A stretch of DNA of 64,000 bases from an uncultured Roseivirgaceae bacterium. Its GTDB lineage: Bacteria; Bacteroidota; Bacteroidia; Cytophagales; Cyclobacteriaceae. The notes under the pieces are model-generated. The model did not search any database and was not told the DNA's origin. It saw only the letters and a list, made by a program, of their open reading frames with translations. The position numbers and the translations under genes are program-made. Each line of letters begins with the position of its first letter. The first letter of the stretch is position 1. Shown here one piece after another: positions 20,728-29,851 of the stretch. The stretch spans positions 15,604 to 79,603 of the forward strand of contig CAYMWA010000002.1 in the NCBI GenBank assembly GCA_964393795.1, read 5' to 3'.

Positions 20728-23151
20728 TCAAATGCTTTCTGCCGTAAAGACGCGCTTTACGCGTTCACTTGTATTCGTCAGAATCTCATAGGGAATCGTG
20801 TGGATGCTTTCGGCCAGCCCCTCAATAGGAAGGTCTTTTCCAAAAACAATGGCTTCGTCACCCTCCCGTGCCGGAATGCCGGTAATATCGACCATGGTCA
20901 TGTCCATGCACACATTGCCAACGACAGGTGCCGGTTTTCCATGCACCAATACCTGTCCGACTCCCTGACTAAAGGCCCGGCTGAACCCGTCGGCGTAGCC
21001 AATAGCAACGGTGGCGATGGTAAGCGGCTTGTCTGCCGTTCCCTTACGTCCGTAGCCAATACTCTCGCCTGTGGCAACGTGCCTGATTTGGGAGATGATG
21101 GTCTTGAGTGTCGCAACAGGTCTCAGGTTGTGTCCCGACCGTGTCGGATCGATGCCGTAGAGCCCGATGCCGAGTCGCACCATGTCGAACTGGAACTCCG
21201 GTAAGCGCAGGATGCCCGGCGTATTCAGGATATGGTATAGTGGACGTGCCGGAAGTTCGGCCGCGATCGCATCGGCGATGGACTTGAATCGTTCGGCCTG
21301 GGTCTTTGAAAACGCATCGTGAACCGCCTCATCGGCACCCGCCAGGTGGCTGAAGATGGAGGCCACATGAAGGTTGCGGTGTTCTTTCAGCAATGCGATC
21401 AACCCGGCCACTTGATCGACATCGAAACCGAGCCGTCGCATGCCGGTGTCGATCTTGATGTGGATGCTGCACGGCCTGTTGTCCAGGAAACGGATGAGGC
21501 TTTTGAGGATCCGGAAGCTGTACACTTCAGGCTCAAGCCTGTATCGCGACATGGCCTCGAATCCCTCTTCGGCGGGATTCATCACCATGATGGGTAAATC
21601 GATGTTGTTCTTTCTGAGCTCGACACCTTCGTCCGCATAAGCGACACCCAGATAGTCGATGCGATGGTACTGCAGCACGTTGGCAATTTCCACGCTGCCG
21701 CTTCCATACGCGAAAGCCTTCACCATCGCCATAATCCTCGTTTCCGGTTGCAGGCGGCTCTTGAAATAATGAAGGTTGTGCACGAGGGCGCCGAGATCGA
21801 TCTCCATGACAGTACCGTGAACCTTTCGCTGGATGTGGTTGACGATCTTTTCGAATGAAAAGACTCTTGCGCCTTTGACAAGAATCGCCTCATCCTGTAA
21901 TGTGGAGAAATCAAAGTCCGTTAGAAAATCTTCGGTCGAGCGATAGAAAATCGAATCGGAAGGGAATTGTTCCTGATGGGCAAAGAGCACCGGTCCTATA
22001 CCGACGAAGTGATCAATGTGCGCAGCCGAAACAAGCGACGCCATTCGCCTGACCACCTCCAGCGCCGAAAGTCCTGACTGATGGATGTCGGACAAAATCA
22101 CTCGCTTTCTTTGCTTTTGCTTTTGTTGTGAAAGAAAATCCAGACTTATCTGCAATCCGGCCAGATCGTTGTTGTATGTGTCGTCGATGATCTGGCATTG
22201 GTTAATCCCTTCCTTGATCTCCAGGCGCATGGGGATGGCGCGCAGCGATTGGACACGCGACTGAATTTCTTCCGGGGAAAGGCCAAAGTATAGCATCACC
22301 GCAACGCAGTGAAAGCAGTTCTCGATCGATGCAGGATCGGAGAAAGGAAGCGTAAGGTCAAACGACTTACCGTTGGTGATTATCGTATAGCCGCCCGACG
22401 CTTTGGCTATTTGGATGGTCGCACTTTCCTGGGCGCCCCACGAAAGACCACTTATGCCCGCCTCGCGGATGGCCTGGTCAATCGCCGTATGATCCTTGCA
22501 GTATACGACGACCTTTGACCCGGCGAAGAGCCGGAGTTTCTCCCGGATCTTTTCGTCGGTATTGCCAAAACCTTCATCATGTGCTGAACCGATGTTGGTG
22601 AACACACCAATGGTGGGGCGTAATATCTTTTGCAACCGGGCCATCTCTCCTGTGGTTGAGATCCCGGCTTCGAAGATGCCAAGCGTATGGTATGCTTGCA
22701 GCTGCCACACGGAAAGCGGCACTCCGAGTTGCGAATTGTAGCTTGCGGGGTTCTTGGCAATCTTAAAGTCTGGAGAAAGCAGCTGGTACAGCCATTCTTT
22801 GACAATCGTCTTTCCGTTACTGCCAGTCACCGCGATCACCGGCGCGTCGGTCTCCTGCCGATGAACCGATGCGATATCCTGAATAGCGCTGATGGAAGAA
22901 GCTACCTGCAACACGTTGGCATCACCACCGATCGCCACCGGTTTTTCGACGACAAACTGTCGAACACCGGCTTCATACAAAGCGTCGACGAACTGGTGCC
23001 CATCGTGGTGTAAGCCGTTGATCGCAAAAAACACAGCGCCCTCCGACACCAGCGCCTTCCGGCTGTCGGTCAGGAGATGGGTGACGGGCCGGTCCCCGAA
23101 ATGCTGAAGGATTTTGCCGCCGGTGATTCCGGGGAGTTGCGAAAAGAGCAT
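20728..23151 (-). CDS. alr: Bifunctional MurF-like ligase / alanine racemase
   Basis: VTGSNGKT Mur-ligase N-half. Racemase motifs MVKAFAYGSG (PLP Lys), IKIDTGMRRLG, VRLGIGLYG, IGYADG and VCMDM. Confidence 0.95.
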   Translation of the reverse strand: MLFSQLPGITGGKILQHFGDRPVTHLLTDSRKALVSEGAVFFAINGLHHDGHQFVDALYEAGVRQFVVEKPVAIGGDANVLQVASSISAIQDIASVHRQETDAPVIAVTGSNGKTIVKEWLYQLLSPDFKIAKNPASYNSQLGVPLSVWQLQAYHTLGIFEAGISTTGEMARLQKILRPTIGVFTNIGSAHDEGFGNTDEKIREKLRLFAGSKVVVYCKDHTAIDQAIREAGISGLSWGAQESATIQIAKASGGYTIITNGKSFDLTLPFSDPASIENCFHCVAVMLYFGLSPEEIQSRVQSLRAIPMRLEIKEGINQCQIIDDTYNNDLAGLQISLDFLSQQKQKQRKRVILSDIHQSGLSALEVVRRMASLVSAAHIDHFVGIGPVLFAHQEQFPSDSIFYRSTEDFLTDFDFSTLQDEAILVKGARVFSFEKIVNHIQRKVHGTVMEIDLGALVHNLHYFKSRLQPETRIMAMVKAFAYGSGSVEIANVLQYHRIDYLGVAYADEGVELRKNNIDLPIMVMNPAEEGFEAMSRYRLEPEVYSFRILKSLIRFLDNRPCSIHIKIDTGMRRLGFDVDQVAGLIALLKEHRNLHVASIFSHLAGADEAVHDAFSKTQAERFKSIADAIAAELPARPLYHILNTPGILRLPEFQFDMVRLGIGLYGIDPTRSGHNLRPVATLKTIISQIRHVATGESIGYGRKGTADKPLTIATVAIGYADGFSRAFSQGVGQVLVHGKPAPVVGNVCMDMTMVDITGIPAREGDEAIVFGKDLPIEGLAESIHTIPYEILTNTSERVKRVFTAESI

Positions 23152-23672: not shown

Positions 23673-23751
23673 CCTGCCCGTCAACCGTTCAACACTCTCT
23701 TTCTTGAACATTATGCAGCGTGTTTCCCATTTTTGCATATACTTTCTATAT

Positions 23752-23766
23752 TGCAACGTTGTTGCA
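23752..23766. promoter_or_regulatory. Putative Zur/Fur-family operator
   Basis: Perfect inverted repeat TGCAAC-GTT-GTTGCA just upstream of the likely TBDR start (GTG 23774 or TTG 23777). Confidence 0.6.
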
Positions 23767-23773
23767 TAAAGCT

Positions 23774-26170
23774 GTGTTGAGATTCGTCCGCCTTTACTTC
23801 CTTCTGATACTATTTTCGGCCCTCGCCCCAGCAGCGCGCGCACAGACGTGTTCGGACGCTTTGGCGGGTGTTATTGCCGATGAGCAAGGCGGACCGTTGC
23901 CGGGCGCGGTGATCACCGTGGAGGAAAACGGTCTTCAGGCTATTTCGGATGCCAATGGCTCATTTCGATTGTCGGGATTTTGTCCGGGAAGCTATTCCCT
24001 TCGCATTACCTTTATCGGATACGAACCGCTGACGCGGTCGGTGACGGTTCCGCAGCAGCGAGCGCTCACCTTACGGCTACAGCCATCGGAGACGATGCTC
24101 GAAGATGTGACCGTGGAAGCGCATCGGGCGTCGAAGAGCGCGACACAAACAGTAGCCACCCTGCACACAGATGAACTTCAGAATTTGCATGGAAAACCGC
24201 TTGGGGAATCGCTTAAGGAGATCCCCGGTGTAAATGCGTTGCAGACAGGGCCATCGATTTTCAAGCCTGTGATCGACGGCCTTCACAGTCAGCGCATACT
24301 GATCCTGAATAACGGCATCCGGCAGGAGGGCCAGCAATGGGGTGTGGAGCATGCGCCTGAAATTGACCCGTTTATCGCCTCCGAGATTGTGGTGCTGAAG
24401 GGTGCTGAAACGGTGCGATACGGGTCGGCTGCTATGGGTGGCGTGATCATCATCAATCCGCCACCGTTGCACGAGACGAAAAAAGTAGGGGGCGAATTGA
24501 ATCTCGGCTTGATGTCGAACAACCGGATGGGGGTATTTTCCGGATTGGTGGAAGGCAATCTCGCCGCAGAGTCCAGGTGGAGCTGGCGGCTCCAGAGTTC
24601 CGTCAAGAAGGGTGGGGATTATCATACGCCCGACTATAATCTTTCGAACACCGGTGTCGAGGAATTCAATTTTTCGGGCGCTTTGGGTTTTAAGGACGAA
24701 GGCAGAGGACTTGAATTTTACCTCAGCAGCTTCAATTCCGAAACCGCTATATTGAGGGCGGCACATACAGGCAACCTCGATGACCTTTGGCGCTCAATCT
24801 CTACGGAACGTCCGTGGTACATCGATGATTTCAGTTACACGCTGGACCCACCACGGCAGGAGACAAGACACCATCTGCTAAAGGTCAGCGGCTACCAGCA
24901 GATCAAAGGCCTTGGGAAGCTGACGATGCTTTACGGCGGACAATACGACGATCGTCAGGAGTTTGACATCCGGCGCTCAGGAAGGAGCGCTCGACCTTCT
25001 CTTTCGCTCAACCTCTTGAGCCATGTCCTCGATGTATCGGTTGATCACGCTCACGCCACACACAGTGGGAGCTTTGGCATTAACGGGACATTAAAAGTAA
25101 ATCGAAACGATACAGAGTCAACGGGTGTGCGACCATTGCTGCCCGATTTTCGTCAGGCGTCTGCCGGCGTGTTCGTGTTGGAAAAATGGAAGAACGACAA
25201 CCTGATTTTGGAGGGAGGCCTGCGGTATGATTTTCAGCACCTGCAGGTACTTACCTTCATCCAAAATCAGCAATTGATCAAGCCTCGTTTCAATTTCAGC
25301 TTTCTGTCGGGCACCCTTGGCGCTACGGTCCTGTTCAGTCCGAAATGGCGGCTGTTGTCAAATTTGGGAATTTCGTCGCGGCCCCCACATGTCAGCGAAC
25401 TGTATAGTGAAGGCCTGCACCACGGAACCGCTTCCATTGAAGAAGGATTGATGCGTCAGGGCGGCAACGTCAATACGGAACAATCGACGATTAACAACGA
25501 GCATTCGCGCAAGTGGATCAATACCCTTCAGTACACTGGTGAGAAGCTTTCGGTCGACTTCTCAGTCTACTACAACGCCATCAACAACTATGTGTATTTA
25601 CGGCCGATGGGTACGCGTTTTACCGTCCGTGGATTTTTTCCGGTCTTTAGATACGAGCAAACGGATGCCGTGCTTGCGGGCAGTGATGCAGCGGTAAAGT
25701 GGGCGATCAGTGAGAAGTTTTCCTTCAGCAGCAAGTTCTCCTACATCTACGCGAAGGACAAAGTAAAGAACGATGTAGTGATCTATATTCCACCAGCCCA
25801 ATGGGAAAACGGATTGAGTTTCACCCTCCCTGCGCTTGGTAAGCTGAAGGACTTCCGCGCGGGCATCAGTGTCCCGCTGACCTTCCGCCAGAACAGGGCA
25901 CCCGAAGCTGTCGATCCGCGTAGCATTGATGAAGGAGATGTGCCGGACCGGGTTTTTGATTTTGCGCCGGCACCCAGGGGCTATGCGCTGCTCAATGCCA
26001 ATATCGGGTTCAAATGGCCTGTTGGCGACCATATGCTTGGCATCTCACTCACAGGCGAAAATATTCTCAACGCCCGGTACCGGAACTACATGAATCGACT
26101 GCGCTACTATGCAGACGACATCGGCTCGAATTTTATACTGCGCGTATCGTATAACTTCCTTTCACACTAA
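23774..26170 (+). CDS. TonB-dependent receptor (likely metal uptake); start uncertain
   Basis: Signal peptide, carboxypeptidase-regulatory-like N-domain, plug (PVIDGLHSQRIL..GQQWGVEHAPEID), LYSEGLHHG and a beta-barrel-type C-terminus. Confidence 0.92.
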   Translation: MLRFVRLYFLLILFSALAPAARAQTCSDALAGVIADEQGGPLPGAVITVEENGLQAISDANGSFRLSGFCPGSYSLRITFIGYEPLTRSVTVPQQRALTLRLQPSETMLEDVTVEAHRASKSATQTVATLHTDELQNLHGKPLGESLKEIPGVNALQTGPSIFKPVIDGLHSQRILILNNGIRQEGQQWGVEHAPEIDPFIASEIVVLKGAETVRYGSAAMGGVIIINPPPLHETKKVGGELNLGLMSNNRMGVFSGLVEGNLAAESRWSWRLQSSVKKGGDYHTPDYNLSNTGVEEFNFSGALGFKDEGRGLEFYLSSFNSETAILRAAHTGNLDDLWRSISTERPWYIDDFSYTLDPPRQETRHHLLKVSGYQQIKGLGKLTMLYGGQYDDRQEFDIRRSGRSARPSLSLNLLSHVLDVSVDHAHATHSGSFGINGTLKVNRNDTESTGVRPLLPDFRQASAGVFVLEKWKNDNLILEGGLRYDFQHLQVLTFIQNQQLIKPRFNFSFLSGTLGATVLFSPKWRLLSNLGISSRPPHVSELYSEGLHHGTASIEEGLMRQGGNVNTEQSTINNEHSRKWINTLQYTGEKLSVDFSVYYNAINNYVYLRPMGTRFTVRGFFPVFRYEQTDAVLAGSDAAVKWAISEKFSFSSKFSYIYAKDKVKNDVVIYIPPAQWENGLSFTLPALGKLKDFRAGISVPLTFRQNRAPEAVDPRSIDEGDVPDRVFDFAPAPRGYALLNANIGFKWPVGDHMLGISLTGENILNARYRNYMNRLRYYADDIGSNFILRVSYNFLSH

Positions 26171-26172
26171 CC

Positions 26173-26736
26173 ATGACCAATACATTCATCCACCTTAGGC
26201 GCGAGTGGCCAGCCATGCTGATGTTGTTTTCCGGGCTCCTCCTGACCGGCTGTAAAAGCGAAGATCCGAAACCGGTCAACGAAGAGGAGGTGATCACCAC
26301 TGTTGAAGTGACGCTTGTGCCCGATGACGGCGGTGCTACCGTGACGCTAAAATTTTTCGATGAGGATGGTGAGTTTGGAAGTATTGCACCGGTAACAACG
26401 ATCAGCGGGCCGCTTAAAGCCGGCGCGACCTACGCGGGAGCGATCACATTGCTCAACGAGACACTTGAACCTGCTGAAAGTGTTTCCGATGAGGTTGCAG
26501 AAGAGGCAGACGCACATCTCTTTTGCTATACCACGAGCAACGTTGAAGTGGCTTATTCGGATCAAGATGCAAACGGGTTGCCTATCGGGTTGCTGACGAC
26601 ATGGACAGCGGGTGCTGCCGGGAACGCAGAGGTGGAAATCGTGTTGCGTCATCAGCCCGGGACGAAAGATGGGAAGTGCCCCGGCACGGGCGAGACCGAC
26701 GTTCAGGTGACTTTCCCATTGCAGGTCGTGGAGTAG
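26173..26736 (+). CDS. TBDR-associated surface lipoprotein
   Basis: Lipobox LTGC. Motifs EEEVITT, F.DEDG, EADAH and LRHQP...GETD. Starts 2 nt after the TBDR stop. Confidence 0.8.
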   Translation: MTNTFIHLRREWPAMLMLFSGLLLTGCKSEDPKPVNEEEVITTVEVTLVPDDGGATVTLKFFDEDGEFGSIAPVTTISGPLKAGATYAGAITLLNETLEPAESVSDEVAEEADAHLFCYTTSNVEVAYSDQDANGLPIGLLTTWTAGAAGNAEVEIVLRHQPGTKDGKCPGTGETDVQVTFPLQVVE

Positions 26737-26775: not shown

Positions 26776-27516
26776 CTAGGAGGCCTTCACAAGAAAATGC
26801 TCTACGTCTTTGAGATTGAGCACGCCTTCATAGTAGGCTTTGCCAAAGATGACGGCGAAGATGCCCATGTCATTGAGGCGTCTGATATCATCCATGCCAC
26901 GCACACCGCCGCTGGCCAGCACGCACAGTTCCGGAAACGCATCGATAATTTGTTGGTAGTAATCAAAGGCGGGACCTTCGAGTACACCATCTCTTGAGAC
27001 ATCAGTTGACTTGAGGTACTTCAAGCCGCGATCGTAGAAAAAACGGAGGTGCTCAAAGAGCATGAGATTGGCGCGTCGCTGCCATCCACGGTAGAGCAGC
27101 TCTTTTGACTCCTGGTTGATGACATCCGCGCCAAGCGTCATTTTTTCCCGACCGTAAGAGACAATCCATGAGGCAAACAATTCCGGATCAGTTACCGCGA
27201 TGCTGGCGGCAGTGATGTATGCGGCACCGTACTCATATGCCTTCGCAATATCGCCATCGGTTGAAATGCCGCCGGTGAAGTCGACCTTGAGGTCGGTGTG
27301 CCCGGAGACAGCTTCGAGCACATGCCAATTGGCAGGATGTCCTCGTTCGGCGCCATCGAGGTCGACGAGGTGAATCACTTCAATGCCATGATCCTGAAAT
27401 CGCCGCGCCAGGTCCAGCGGATTTTCGTCGTACGATTTTTCGCTGGACTTATCGCCTTTGCGCATTTTCACCACACTTCCTTTCCTGATTGCGATTGAGG
27501 GAATTACCTGAATCAT
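26776..27516 (-). CDS. HisA-like TIM-barrel paralogue (degenerate active site)
   Basis: HLVDLDGA, GW, TDVSRDG.LEGP, ASGGV and FGKAYYEG are HisA-like, but strand 1 reads IPSIAI instead of IPAIDI. Confidence 0.85.
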   Translation of the reverse strand: MIQVIPSIAIRKGSVVKMRKGDKSSEKSYDENPLDLARRFQDHGIEVIHLVDLDGAERGHPANWHVLEAVSGHTDLKVDFTGGISTDGDIAKAYEYGAAYITAASIAVTDPELFASWIVSYGREKMTLGADVINQESKELLYRGWQRRANLMLFEHLRFFYDRGLKYLKSTDVSRDGVLEGPAFDYYQQIIDAFPELCVLASGGVRGMDDIRRLNDMGIFAVIFGKAYYEGVLNLKDVEHFLVKAS

Positions 27517-27702
27517 CTTCACTGTACTTTTTGTTCACGCAATTTAGTATGCAGCGTGGAAACATCCGCCTGTCGCGGGCAAAACCGATGAAGGAATATT
27601 TCATTATTTTTACCCGAACTATACTGTCAGCATATTACCATGGCGTATGTGTTCGTATTAAGCTTAGACATCCGAAGTGCACTTAGACTAACGAATCTGC
27701 TT

Positions 27703-29307
27703 ATGAAGTTGAGAATGACGTACGGTTGCTTCGCCCTCATCGGCATGTTGCTGTTCCCGGTAGCATCGAAGGGCCAGGCAAGTGTGAGAAAAATGTCTTC
27801 GACGATCAACCATCCTTCGCTTAACGTTTATGCTCCCTATATCAGCGCCGATGCCAATGCGATTGTCTTCCTGTCTGACAACGCCGAAGACCGTGTGCTC
27901 ACGCCCTTTTTCTCCTACCGGGAACGCGGCGACTGGAAGGAGCCACAGGTACTACCGAAGGCCGTCAACACACGTTTAAACTTCTTGCGCGGATACGGGC
28001 TAAGTGCCGACGGCAGCACATTGTACTTTAGCACCCTGAAGTCTCCAGGTGTAGGTGGTTTTGATATCTGCACCAGTGAATGGCGCGGTGGTGCGGCATG
28101 GACCAATCCGGTGAACCTGGGCAAACCCATCAACACGCGGGCACATGAGGCATGCCCTTCCATCACCCCTGACGGACGCATGTTGTACTTCATGCGATGT
28201 GAGAAGATGAGCCAGAACGCCGCAGCGGGCTGTGTACTTTTTCGCGTGGAAAAAAAATTGAACGGATTATGGGGAGAACCCGAAGCGCTTCCTGACTACA
28301 TCAACACCGGGAATTCACAAACACCGCGTATCATGGCAGACGCAGAGACACTTATTTTCTCTTCTGATCAAATGGGAACGACAAGAGGCGGTATGGATCT
28401 GTACATGACGCGCTACCGCGACGGTGTCTGGAGTACTCCGGTTCCTCTTGACTTCGTGAATACCGAAAGCGACGATCAGTATGTATCTGTAACCGGATTA
28501 GGGCGCTACCTGCTGCGCGATTCACCGGGCGAGCGCAGGAATCACCTTATGGAATACCTGATCCCCGAATCGCTTCGTCCGAAAGGGATGATGAAAATTG
28601 TCGGCACAGTGGTGGATGAATCCGGAAAGCCGGTGCAGGCATATATATCGCTGCTGAATACCGACACCGGTGAACGCGTTTACAACAGCCGGCCTGACAG
28701 CGATGGTACGTTTCTACTCTATGCGATGGAGGGAAGCCGGTATGAATTGGCGGTGGATCCGGACCATGGCAATCAGACCTGGTTCACACAGTCTTTTGAC
28801 CTGACCGCTGATGACATTCCACAGCAGGAGAAGGTGCATGCCGTACTGAAACCGGTTGCCGAGGGCGACGAGTGGACCCTTGGGGACGTGGTGTTCAATC
28901 CGCATTCCGATGTGATCGACATGGCCGCGTCACAGCGTGAACTACAACGGTTTTCAAGGGTAGTGACAAGCAATCCGCATCTGGCCTTCGAGTTGGAGGT
29001 GTTGTTTGAAGGTTATGCCGAGGATTCCATTGCTTCAGCACCCGACATGACCGAGATTCGGATAGACACGGTGCATTGGCTTTACATCGACATTGATACA
29101 CTCGGGCAATTGTACGAACGCGATACGGCGAGTATCAAGGTGGTCTATCACAACGACCGGACCCCTGCCCAAGTGCAGGCCCTGGTGTCGTACCTCATCT
29201 CCAGGGGTGTGCCGCCTGACAACCTGCGCGGCATTGCCACGGCTATTCCGGCGATATTGCCTGGCGACAGAAAGACGACAGTGAGCGTGCGGGCGGTCAA
29301 AAAGTGA
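27703..29307 (+). CDS. Secreted PD40 beta-propeller + beta-sandwich + degenerate OmpA-like domain protein
   Basis: Repeats such as PYISADANAIVFLS, LSADGSTLYFS, PSITPDGRMLYF and GGMDLY, then DSDGTF, then VVFNPHSD. Start uncertain (27640 or 27703). Confidence 0.75.
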   Translation: MKLRMTYGCFALIGMLLFPVASKGQASVRKMSSTINHPSLNVYAPYISADANAIVFLSDNAEDRVLTPFFSYRERGDWKEPQVLPKAVNTRLNFLRGYGLSADGSTLYFSTLKSPGVGGFDICTSEWRGGAAWTNPVNLGKPINTRAHEACPSITPDGRMLYFMRCEKMSQNAAAGCVLFRVEKKLNGLWGEPEALPDYINTGNSQTPRIMADAETLIFSSDQMGTTRGGMDLYMTRYRDGVWSTPVPLDFVNTESDDQYVSVTGLGRYLLRDSPGERRNHLMEYLIPESLRPKGMMKIVGTVVDESGKPVQAYISLLNTDTGERVYNSRPDSDGTFLLYAMEGSRYELAVDPDHGNQTWFTQSFDLTADDIPQQEKVHAVLKPVAEGDEWTLGDVVFNPHSDVIDMAASQRELQRFSRVVTSNPHLAFELEVLFEGYAEDSIASAPDMTEIRIDTVHWLYIDIDTLGQLYERDTASIKVVYHNDRTPAQVQALVSYLISRGVPPDNLRGIATAIPAILPGDRKTTVSVRAVKK

Positions 29308-29851
29308 AAGGCACAGACACCAGCGTCTTGTCCCACATCAGCACCATTTCAGCGTCTTCACCGGTCTTTTCAAAGGCGATGGTAAACTGTTCAAAAACCT
29401 GCTCCTGTTGAAGGGCGTGCACGTCTACGGTCAGCACATCGAGATCAGGATCGCGGTTGGGTTCGCCTTTTGAGTCGAGGCCCCACTGACCATATTCGGA
29501 ATTAAAAATAATGGTCCATGTGTTGGGACGTGGGATGGTCCACAATGAGTACTTCCCCGCTTTCAGAACGTCACCTTCGAACTGGAGATCCTTGTTGGTT
29601 TCGAATGTAGTGGCCTCGTTGGCACCGGTGCGCCACACCTTGTCGTACGGCACAAGCCCGCCAAAAATAACGCGTCCCTTTTTTGAAGGACGGTTGTAAA
29701 AGACTTTGATCGCGAGGTCGCCCTGCTGATAATAGACCTCTTCTTCAGGGCTGAATGACTTTGTGTTTCTCTTCTGCATGTAGCCGATGAAGGCTACAAT
29801 TCCGGCAAGAACGGCTATTCCAATAAGACTGAACATCAAAAACTTCCGCAT
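29297..29851 (-). CDS. DUF2911-family protein
   Basis: YNRPSKKGRVIFGGLVPYDKVWRTGANEAT, GKYSLWTIP and W..GY/QWG motifs. Confidence 0.9.
   Translation of the reverse strand: MRKFLMFSLIGIAVLAGIVAFIGYMQKRNTKSFSPEEEVYYQQGDLAIKVFYNRPSKKGRVIFGGLVPYDKVWRTGANEATTFETNKDLQFEGDVLKAGKYSLWTIPRPNTWTIIFNSEYGQWGLDSKGEPNRDPDLDVLTVDVHALQQEQVFEQFTIAFEKTGEDAEMVLMWDKTLVSVPFTF

Follow-up and report, generated by a model that had tools for sequence, protein, structure and literature searches.

A Cytophagales HisA paralogue that lacks the beta1 catalytic aspartate, carries a lysine at position 169 and is kept where no histidine pathway genes were found

Introduction

HisA, TrpF and PriA are a textbook system for the study of how enzymes change function, and the aspartate on strand beta1 is the catalytic residue of the ProFAR isomerase HisA. 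PDB entries 5a5w and 5ahe are structures of the S. enterica enzyme (SeHisA), and 2y85, 4axk and 4tx9 are structures of the PriA/subHisA/HisAp type. Laboratory-evolved SeHisA variants with TrpF activity have reportedly been described by Nasvall 2012, Newton 2017 and Lundin 2020, among them L169R (5g2h) and lineages carrying G102A.

The published mutants define which positions of the SeHisA pocket direct it toward one substrate or the other. The single change L169R is enough to remove HisA activity and to confer TrpF activity (PMC7591586 Table 1; PMC13643763), and in simulations R169 of this variant touches D129 and the carboxylate of PRA, the smaller substrate (PMC9088769). Residues G79-G81, R83, G102 and S103 of SeHisA lie at the ProFAR phosphate that is attached to the non-reacting ribose, and mutations at these distal-phosphate positions, including G102A, favour PRA (PMC7591586, PMC9088769). 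None of the TrpF-gain mutations published for SeHisA removes the beta1 base (PMC7591586). In PriA, an Arg shields D130 (PMC9088769).

Here we describe a HisA paralogue encoded in a 64,000-nucleotide stretch of DNA from an uncultured Roseivirgaceae bacterium (order Cytophagales; assembly GCA_964393795.1, contig CAYMWA010000002.1, positions 15,604 to 79,603), which we call the window. The protein resembles HisA (EC 5.3.1.16, TIGR00007) in having the same (beta-alpha)8 barrel, a full-length PF00977 domain, the loop-1 hairpin, the proximal phosphate loops and, in SeHisA numbering, H47, D129, W145, T171 and D176. Unlike HisA, it has no beta1 Asp, has Lys in place of a hydrophobic residue at 169, has replaced G79, R83 and G102, is encoded apart from the his operon and persists in genomes in which a search for his pathway genes found none. 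With the laboratory TrpF variants of SeHisA it shares a basic residue 169, Ala102 and altered positions 79 and 83, and some members of its clade add W145R or the loss of D176; the laboratory variants, however, keep D7, whereas the natural family has lost it and does not depend on tryptophan synthesis.

Two other groups invite comparison. The actinobacterial PriA/subHisA/HisAp enzymes are likewise natural HisA homologues, with a substrate range shifted through changes in active-site loops, and the loop-5 Arg that shields D130 in PriA resembles the role that we propose for Lys169 of the paralogue. These enzymes nevertheless retain the two catalytic Asp residues, serve in histidine and/or tryptophan synthesis and take the place of hisA and trpF, whereas the paralogue coexists with both in its own genome. 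WbuZ and AglZ/HisF2 (TIGR03572, NF038364) are HisA/HisF superfamily members in non-histidine roles, but they derive from HisF, work together with a HisH-like protein and are encoded in glycan gene clusters; the paralogue shares none of these features. Our literature search returned no paper on the paralogue family, on which a 2021 survey of Bacteroidota his genes is also silent. The link between Lys169 and L169R, the comparison of rates with canonical HisA and the carriers in which no His or Trp genes were found are new here.

Results and Discussion

A second HisA-like gene outside the his operon

The gene occupies 26776..27516 on the minus strand and, from the list of open reading frames and the sequence, encodes 246 amino acids plus a stop codon. 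Translation starts at the ATG at 27516, where the homologues start too (MIQV...); the GTG at 27522 is a less likely start and would add two residues. The gene forms a unit on its own: a lipoprotein gene that ends at 26736 converges on it, and a PD40-repeat gene that starts at 27640 diverges from it. No riboswitch or other RNA was found 5' of the paralogue, and a promoter and terminator scan gave a site count not above that of shuffled sequences.

The protein matches PF00977 over its full length (191 bits against a gathering cut-off of 23.6; profile positions 1-227 of 228). AlphaFold, run with a clade alignment, gave a model with a pLDDT of 92.7, whose closest structural matches are SeHisA structures (TM 0.92). 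By sequence and predicted structure the protein is assigned to the HisA/HisF superfamily (PF00977, (beta-alpha)8 barrel). Its score falls below the cut-off of the HisA equivalog TIGR00007 (187.4 against 228.95 bits), while against the HisF, WbuZ and AglZ-HisF2 equivalogs it reaches 52-60 bits, far under cut-offs of 295-310. A search of the ESM Atlas returned HisA-named clusters only. The charge and pI of the protein are ordinary.

The same genome has a canonical hisA, which reads IPAIDI, begins MRIIPAIDIIDGK and is cut by a contig end. It belongs to an operon with the order hisG-hisD-hisB-hisH-hisA on contig C219, outside the window. A first, sequence-only reading of this DNA had stated that the window holds no other his genes and had advised looking for a canonical hisA elsewhere; both points were borne out, all five of these genes lying on C219, and the paralogue is not the only hisA. 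We did not find hisF in the contigs of the genome, and it probably lies past the contig end of C219. A trpF gene is present on contig C89. The paralogue is 40% identical to the canonical HisA of its own genome. Each of the 24 other same-genus species searched has a counterpart of the paralogue, and almost every one shows a second match at 35-42% identity; in each of the 17 same-genus genomes from which the second match was fetched it is a canonical hisA.

The beta1 motif IPSIAI is found in all 120 of the closest homologues (81-100% identity), and the GCA codon is unchanged in independent contigs from landfill, chicken-gut and soil metagenomes of three other studies. The substitution is thus not a private error, the outcome that the sequence-only reading had named as a possible refutation. 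The loss of a catalytic residue would by itself suit a decaying pseudogene or a sequencing or assembly error, but it is the one feature that does; no homologue examined has a broken frame, the motif is shared 120 of 120 times, the independent contigs agree and dN is 0.30 of that of the true HisA. We therefore rejected both decay and error, which we consider barely credible.

Changed and retained residues of the active site

In the HMMER alignment, IPSIAI of the paralogue falls on IPALDL of SeHisA, and Ala9 (codon GCA, 27490..27492, minus strand) falls on the catalytic beta1 Asp, D7, which confirmed the Ala-for-Asp replacement seen by the sequence-only reading. The Asp is invariant in 118 of 118 canonical HisA sequences. 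Across the clade to which the paralogue belongs, nine residues occur at this position (S/A/Y/H/W/F/L/P/T) and Asp never does. Conservation of the change to Ala, which the sequence-only reading had advised checking, holds for the 120 close homologues but not for the wider family, in which beta1 is variable.

The change at position 169 is more diagnostic than the loss of the beta1 Asp and had gone unmentioned in the earlier reading. Lys169 (codon AAG, 27010..27012, minus strand) aligns without gaps to L169 of SeHisA, and the top PDB sequence match of the paralogue is 5g2h, the L169R variant of SeHisA, with R169 of which K169 aligns in sequence, as distinct from coordinates. Lys169 is the hallmark of the clade: it occurs in 23 of 24 diverse members, against none of the 118 canonical HisA sequences, which have L, I, M or another uncharged residue there. 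By analogy with that variant, the side chain of K169 would point into the pocket.

The distal phosphate site of HisA is altered. The loop T81-G82-G83-I84-S85 (27262..27276, minus strand), which corresponds to the 'phosphate 2' loop, replaces G79 and R83 of SeHisA and keeps G80 and G81. At A104-S105 (27202..27207, minus strand), G102 has become Ala, the same change as the laboratory-evolved G102A, and the S103 gripper is kept. SeHisA positions G79-G81, R83, G102 and S103 thus read T, G, G, S, A and S, and T81, S85 and A104 stand where the HisA site has G79, R83 and G102. Over the clade, G102 is replaced by Ala in 14 of 24 members and R83 is retained in 8 of 24.

The proximal phosphate site is intact. 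S202-G203-G204 (26905..26913, minus strand) forms the phosphate-binding loop of the C-terminal half, with G203 and G204 invariant in the clade, and by the clade alignment G225-K226-A227 (26836..26844, minus strand) forms the second part of the site. The open reading frame and the alignment agree with the sequence-only reading that the GGGIR motif is altered, to TGGIS, and that SRDG (within TDVSRDG), ASGGV and FGKA are kept. Asp131 (27124..27126, minus strand), the counterpart of SeHisA D129, is kept in 22 of 24 clade members, and Asp176 (26989..26991, minus strand), the counterpart of the loop-6 catalytic acid D176, is kept here and in 17 of 24. Other samples show an A>G change at 26989, which is synonymous. 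Residues retained in the clade are D52, D131, G82-G83, S202-G203-G204, G225-K/R226-A227 and G177, although the Gly-Gly loops may be conserved for the fold and not for phosphate binding. Other pocket positions are looser: W145 is kept in 14 members and has become Arg in 5, D176 is absent from 7 and H47 is kept in 18 of the 24.

On these residues the paralogue very probably no longer isomerises ProFAR. If it were a second HisA, still acting on ProFAR with another residue as base, its overall similarity to HisA (40% to its own copy) and the retention of D131, D176 and W145 in this lineage would be accounted for. We nevertheless find this very improbable: the protein scores under the HisA equivalog cut-off, it lacks an Asp that none of the 118 canonical sequences has lost, its distal phosphate grippers are altered, and a basic residue at 169 abolishes activity in SeHisA (PMC7591586, PMC13643763). 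In addition, it co-occurs with a canonical hisA in nearly all of the 24 same-genus genomes searched, and it also occurs in genomes that yielded no his pathway genes.

Extent and origin of the clade

Orthologues at 42-49% identity, with Ser, Thr or Ala at beta1, occur in other families of the same order, and further members came from a search of 1.84 billion cluster representatives. In a FastTree tree, 30 of 33 non-Asp sequences formed one group (support 99), and IQ-TREE, run without the beta1 and 169 columns, placed the 24 diverse members on one side of a branch (SH-aLRT 96). With a HisF-domain outgroup the clade nests inside HisA, grouped with the canonical HisA of Cytophagales (support 86-88), a position that makes a hisA duplication in or near the Cytophagales ancestor its likely origin.

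Among the genomes searched, the clade was found only in Cytophagales, and the family is widespread in those of soil and water. A scan with the single protein returned close relatives only, named as Chryseolinea, Chryseosolibacter, Ohtaekwangia, Dawidia and related MAGs; Chryseolinea serpens DSM 24574 and Chryseosolibacter histidini are carriers that can be cultured. The clade-profile scores of paralogue and canonical HisA overlap, and presence across the order and the phylum was settled by fetched sequences; the best ten non-Cytophagales matches fetched (401 genomes of the phylum sampled) were all canonical, with IPAID and a hydrophobic residue 169. A search for longer, fused forms gave canonical HisA-HisF or HisH fusions and one read-through artefact (P0273) only.

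In three other HisA-like cluster representatives (P0179, P0226 and P0243) the beta1 Asp is replaced by His, Glu or Asn. They nest among canonical HisA and keep Ile169, and judging by their sequences each seems to have lost the catalytic Asp on its own. A 329-aa open reading frame contains a weak PF00977 match at G000:C294:1314-1514, of 41 bits and limited to profile positions 53-119. Such matches recur in other Cytophagales genomes, and this one is probably an unrelated TIM-barrel protein.

Selection and constraint

The paralogue changes more slowly than HisA within the genus. Over the 17 same-genus genomes, amino-acid identity averages 85.5% among the paralogues and 62.1% among the canonical HisA sequences. 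The paralogue is the better conserved copy in 136 of 136 pairs, with a dN 0.30 times that of HisA; synonymous sites are saturated, and the comparison uses dN and amino-acid identity only. Between families the order is slightly reversed (41-48% identity for the paralogue, 43-59% for canonical HisA), so the tight constraint on the paralogue is lineage-specific. That the paralogue retains a selected function is well supported by these sequence comparisons.

Constraint is also distributed differently over the two proteins. In the paralogue clade the column entropy is 1.58 bits on the catalytic face and 2.03 bits over the rest of the protein, against 1.20 and 2.11 bits in canonical HisA. The opposite (stability) face is more conserved in the paralogue (1.64 bits) than in HisA (2.02 bits). 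That the catalytic face of the paralogue remains better conserved than other parts of the protein favours neofunctionalisation, and its weaker constraint than in real HisA (1.58 against 1.20 bits) counts against that reading.

These patterns bear on the main rival to a neofunctionalised metabolic protein, namely a non-catalytic pseudoenzyme whose barrel serves in binding, scaffolding or regulation, for example as a metabolite receptor or a protein partner. We regard a role of this kind as possible but doubtful. It would suit the nine residues, from Ala to Trp, that occupy beta1 and the relaxation of D176, W145 and H47 across the clade; a catalytic face less conserved than that of HisA beside a stability face that is more so, as a protein-protein interface would be; and the very high conservation of the whole protein within the genus. 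Against it stands the continued conservation of the catalytic face, of D52, D131 and K169, and of the two Gly-Gly phosphate loops. The relaxed pocket (beta1, W145, D176 and H47) fits either a non-catalytic protein or several functions within the clade. A new enzyme and a non-catalytic binder have in common the loss of HisA function and the retention of a selected function, and this common part is well supported by the sequences.

Carriers without histidine and tryptophan genes

In several Cytophagales genomes that are at least 90% complete, the paralogue is the sole strong HisA-like gene. Two of them, G071 (one contig, 99% complete) and G111 (1.6 Mb), keep the paralogue, and hisD, hisG, hisF, canonical hisA, trpF and trpC were not found in either. 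Two others, G134 and G031, have the paralogue, trpF and trpC, and hisD and hisG were not found there. Over five paralogue-only genomes, trpF and trpC were both found in three and both not found in two, and none of the five has trpC without trpF. The paralogue persists where no his pathway genes were found and is in this respect not tied to the histidine pathway.

Since G071 and G111 show none of these His and Trp genes, ProFAR, PRFAR and PRA cannot be ligands in all carriers. This removes the sensor of ProFAR or PRFAR that the sequence-only reading had suggested, as the gene is kept where hisG, hisD, hisF and canonical hisA were not found and ProFAR could not be made; it also weakens a role as a TrpF. 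The other two options of that reading, a pseudoenzyme and a neofunctionalised barrel, survive in the part that they share: a lost HisA function and a retained selected one, in keeping with the canonical hisA, the monophyletic and conserved family and Lys169.

A TrpF-like phosphoribosylanthranilate isomerase, back-up or specialised, would be the natural counterpart of the HisA-to-TrpF switch. K169, A104 (G102A), the changes at 79 and 83, W145R (5 of 24) and some losses of D176 fall at sites of single mutations that gave TrpF activity in the laboratory (PMC7591586), and all of these would follow from such a role. Several observations make it improbable, however. The paralogue's own genome and three of the five paralogue-only genomes have a dedicated trpF, two paralogue-only genomes keep the paralogue though trpF and trpC were not found in them, and no genome was seen with trpC but without trpF, so that in the genomes examined there is no missing trpF for the paralogue to fill. 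A PRA isomerase also requires a general base on beta1 (Asp, or Cys in TrpF); the paralogue, with Ala9, lacks this base of the accepted Amadori mechanism, which the published TrpF-gain mutations never remove.

Public databases label these paralogues ProFAR isomerase, and pathway reconstructions consequently credit a histidine step to genomes that lack the pathway. Because the paralogue is in this lineage more conserved than real HisA and is kept without histidine synthesis, the family marks a probably important piece of metabolism or regulation.

G050 (97% complete; L133, L194:8729-10929) has adjacent hisG and hisD genes as well as trpF and trpC. Its sole strong PF00977 match is the paralogue, which reads IPTISI there, and canonical hisA and hisF were not found. 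The gene after hisD in this genome is not a his gene.

A proposed history and function

Our preferred reading, which we hold at about even chances, is that the gene is a neofunctionalised HisA descendant that acts on or binds a small phosphorylated core metabolite. A Cytophagales ancestor would have duplicated hisA. In one copy the catalytic Asp of beta1 would have disappeared, and a buried Lys (K169) on strand beta6, directed into the former ProFAR pocket, would have arisen. The distal phosphate site for ProFAR would have degenerated through G79T, R83S and G102A, with the HisA barrel, the proximal phosphate loops (SGG, GKA and RDG), D131 and, in this lineage, D176 retained. The resulting shortened, positively charged pocket may bind, and probably transforms, a smaller metabolite of the ribose-phosphate type, presumably one from core metabolism with a single phosphate and an anionic group, by a chemistry that would not need the beta1 base.

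A more specific version takes the protein to be a new enzyme that followed the mutational route from HisA to TrpF (a basic residue 169, G102A and loss of the distal phosphate site) and then dropped the beta1 base. It would catalyse an undescribed reaction on a small phosphoribosyl-type core metabolite, with the pair Lys169-Asp131 as the new catalytic centre. We put this forward tentatively and think it rather unlikely in this exact form; if it is true, the reaction is important enough to be kept in streamlined Cytophagales genomes of 1.6 Mb. In sequence, the natural family unites several of the laboratory changes that turn SeHisA away from ProFAR with the loss of the base, and it looks like a natural, ancient outcome of the kind of change seen in the HisA-to-TrpF experiments.

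Gene neighbourhood

A comparison of 30 loci, drawn from about 10 families, by all-against-all clustering and with Pfam and NCBIfam showed no conserved operon around the paralogue; lysA, purK and an rprX/rprY-like pair are the only neighbours that recur among these loci. Within the family the order is FAD monooxygenase, Asp-protease/PDZ, LOG, DUF2911, (PD40), paralogue, (lipoprotein, TonB receptor) and murF-alr, a synteny no greater than relatedness would give. The diaminopimelate decarboxylase gene lysA (TIGR01048, about 400 bits) is a divergent neighbour in 5-6 loci from three families (L140:7030-8262; also L144, L145, L148, L149 and L136), an adjacency that may be a remnant of the ancestral gene order. 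In 2 loci purK lies near the paralogue.

A two-component pair resembling rprX/rprY lies directly upstream of the paralogue, on the same strand, in three lineages (L131:3754-6720 of G111; L136:3775-6720 of G064; protein P0273), and the response regulators are 50-56% identical. In P0273, of 505 aa, the response regulator and the paralogue are joined through a junk linker, and the fusion is probably a read-through or gene-call artefact. The same-strand pair lends something to a non-catalytic role, in the variant in which the barrel is possibly connected with this two-component system, whose genes come before its own in some lineages, but these neighbours are missing from this window and from most loci. 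Neither lysA nor purK nor an rprX/rprY-like pair is found near the paralogue in the window.

The neighbours that the window does hold lie on both strands. At 20728-23151 (minus strand), an 807-aa open reading frame with MurF-like Mur ligase domains and a complete alanine racemase encodes a MurF-Alr fusion. At 23720-26736 (plus strand), a TonB-dependent receptor is followed by a small lipoprotein without a Pfam match, convergent with the paralogue; not all relatives have the receptor and the lipoprotein (34 and 17 of 80 loci). A DUF2911 gene at 29297-29851 (minus strand) has the same orientation as the paralogue. In relatives without the PD40-repeat gene (L098 and L072), the DUF2911 gene is directly upstream of the paralogue, and this gene order suggests that the PD40 gene was inserted between two genes, DUF2911 and the paralogue, that had earlier been adjacent.
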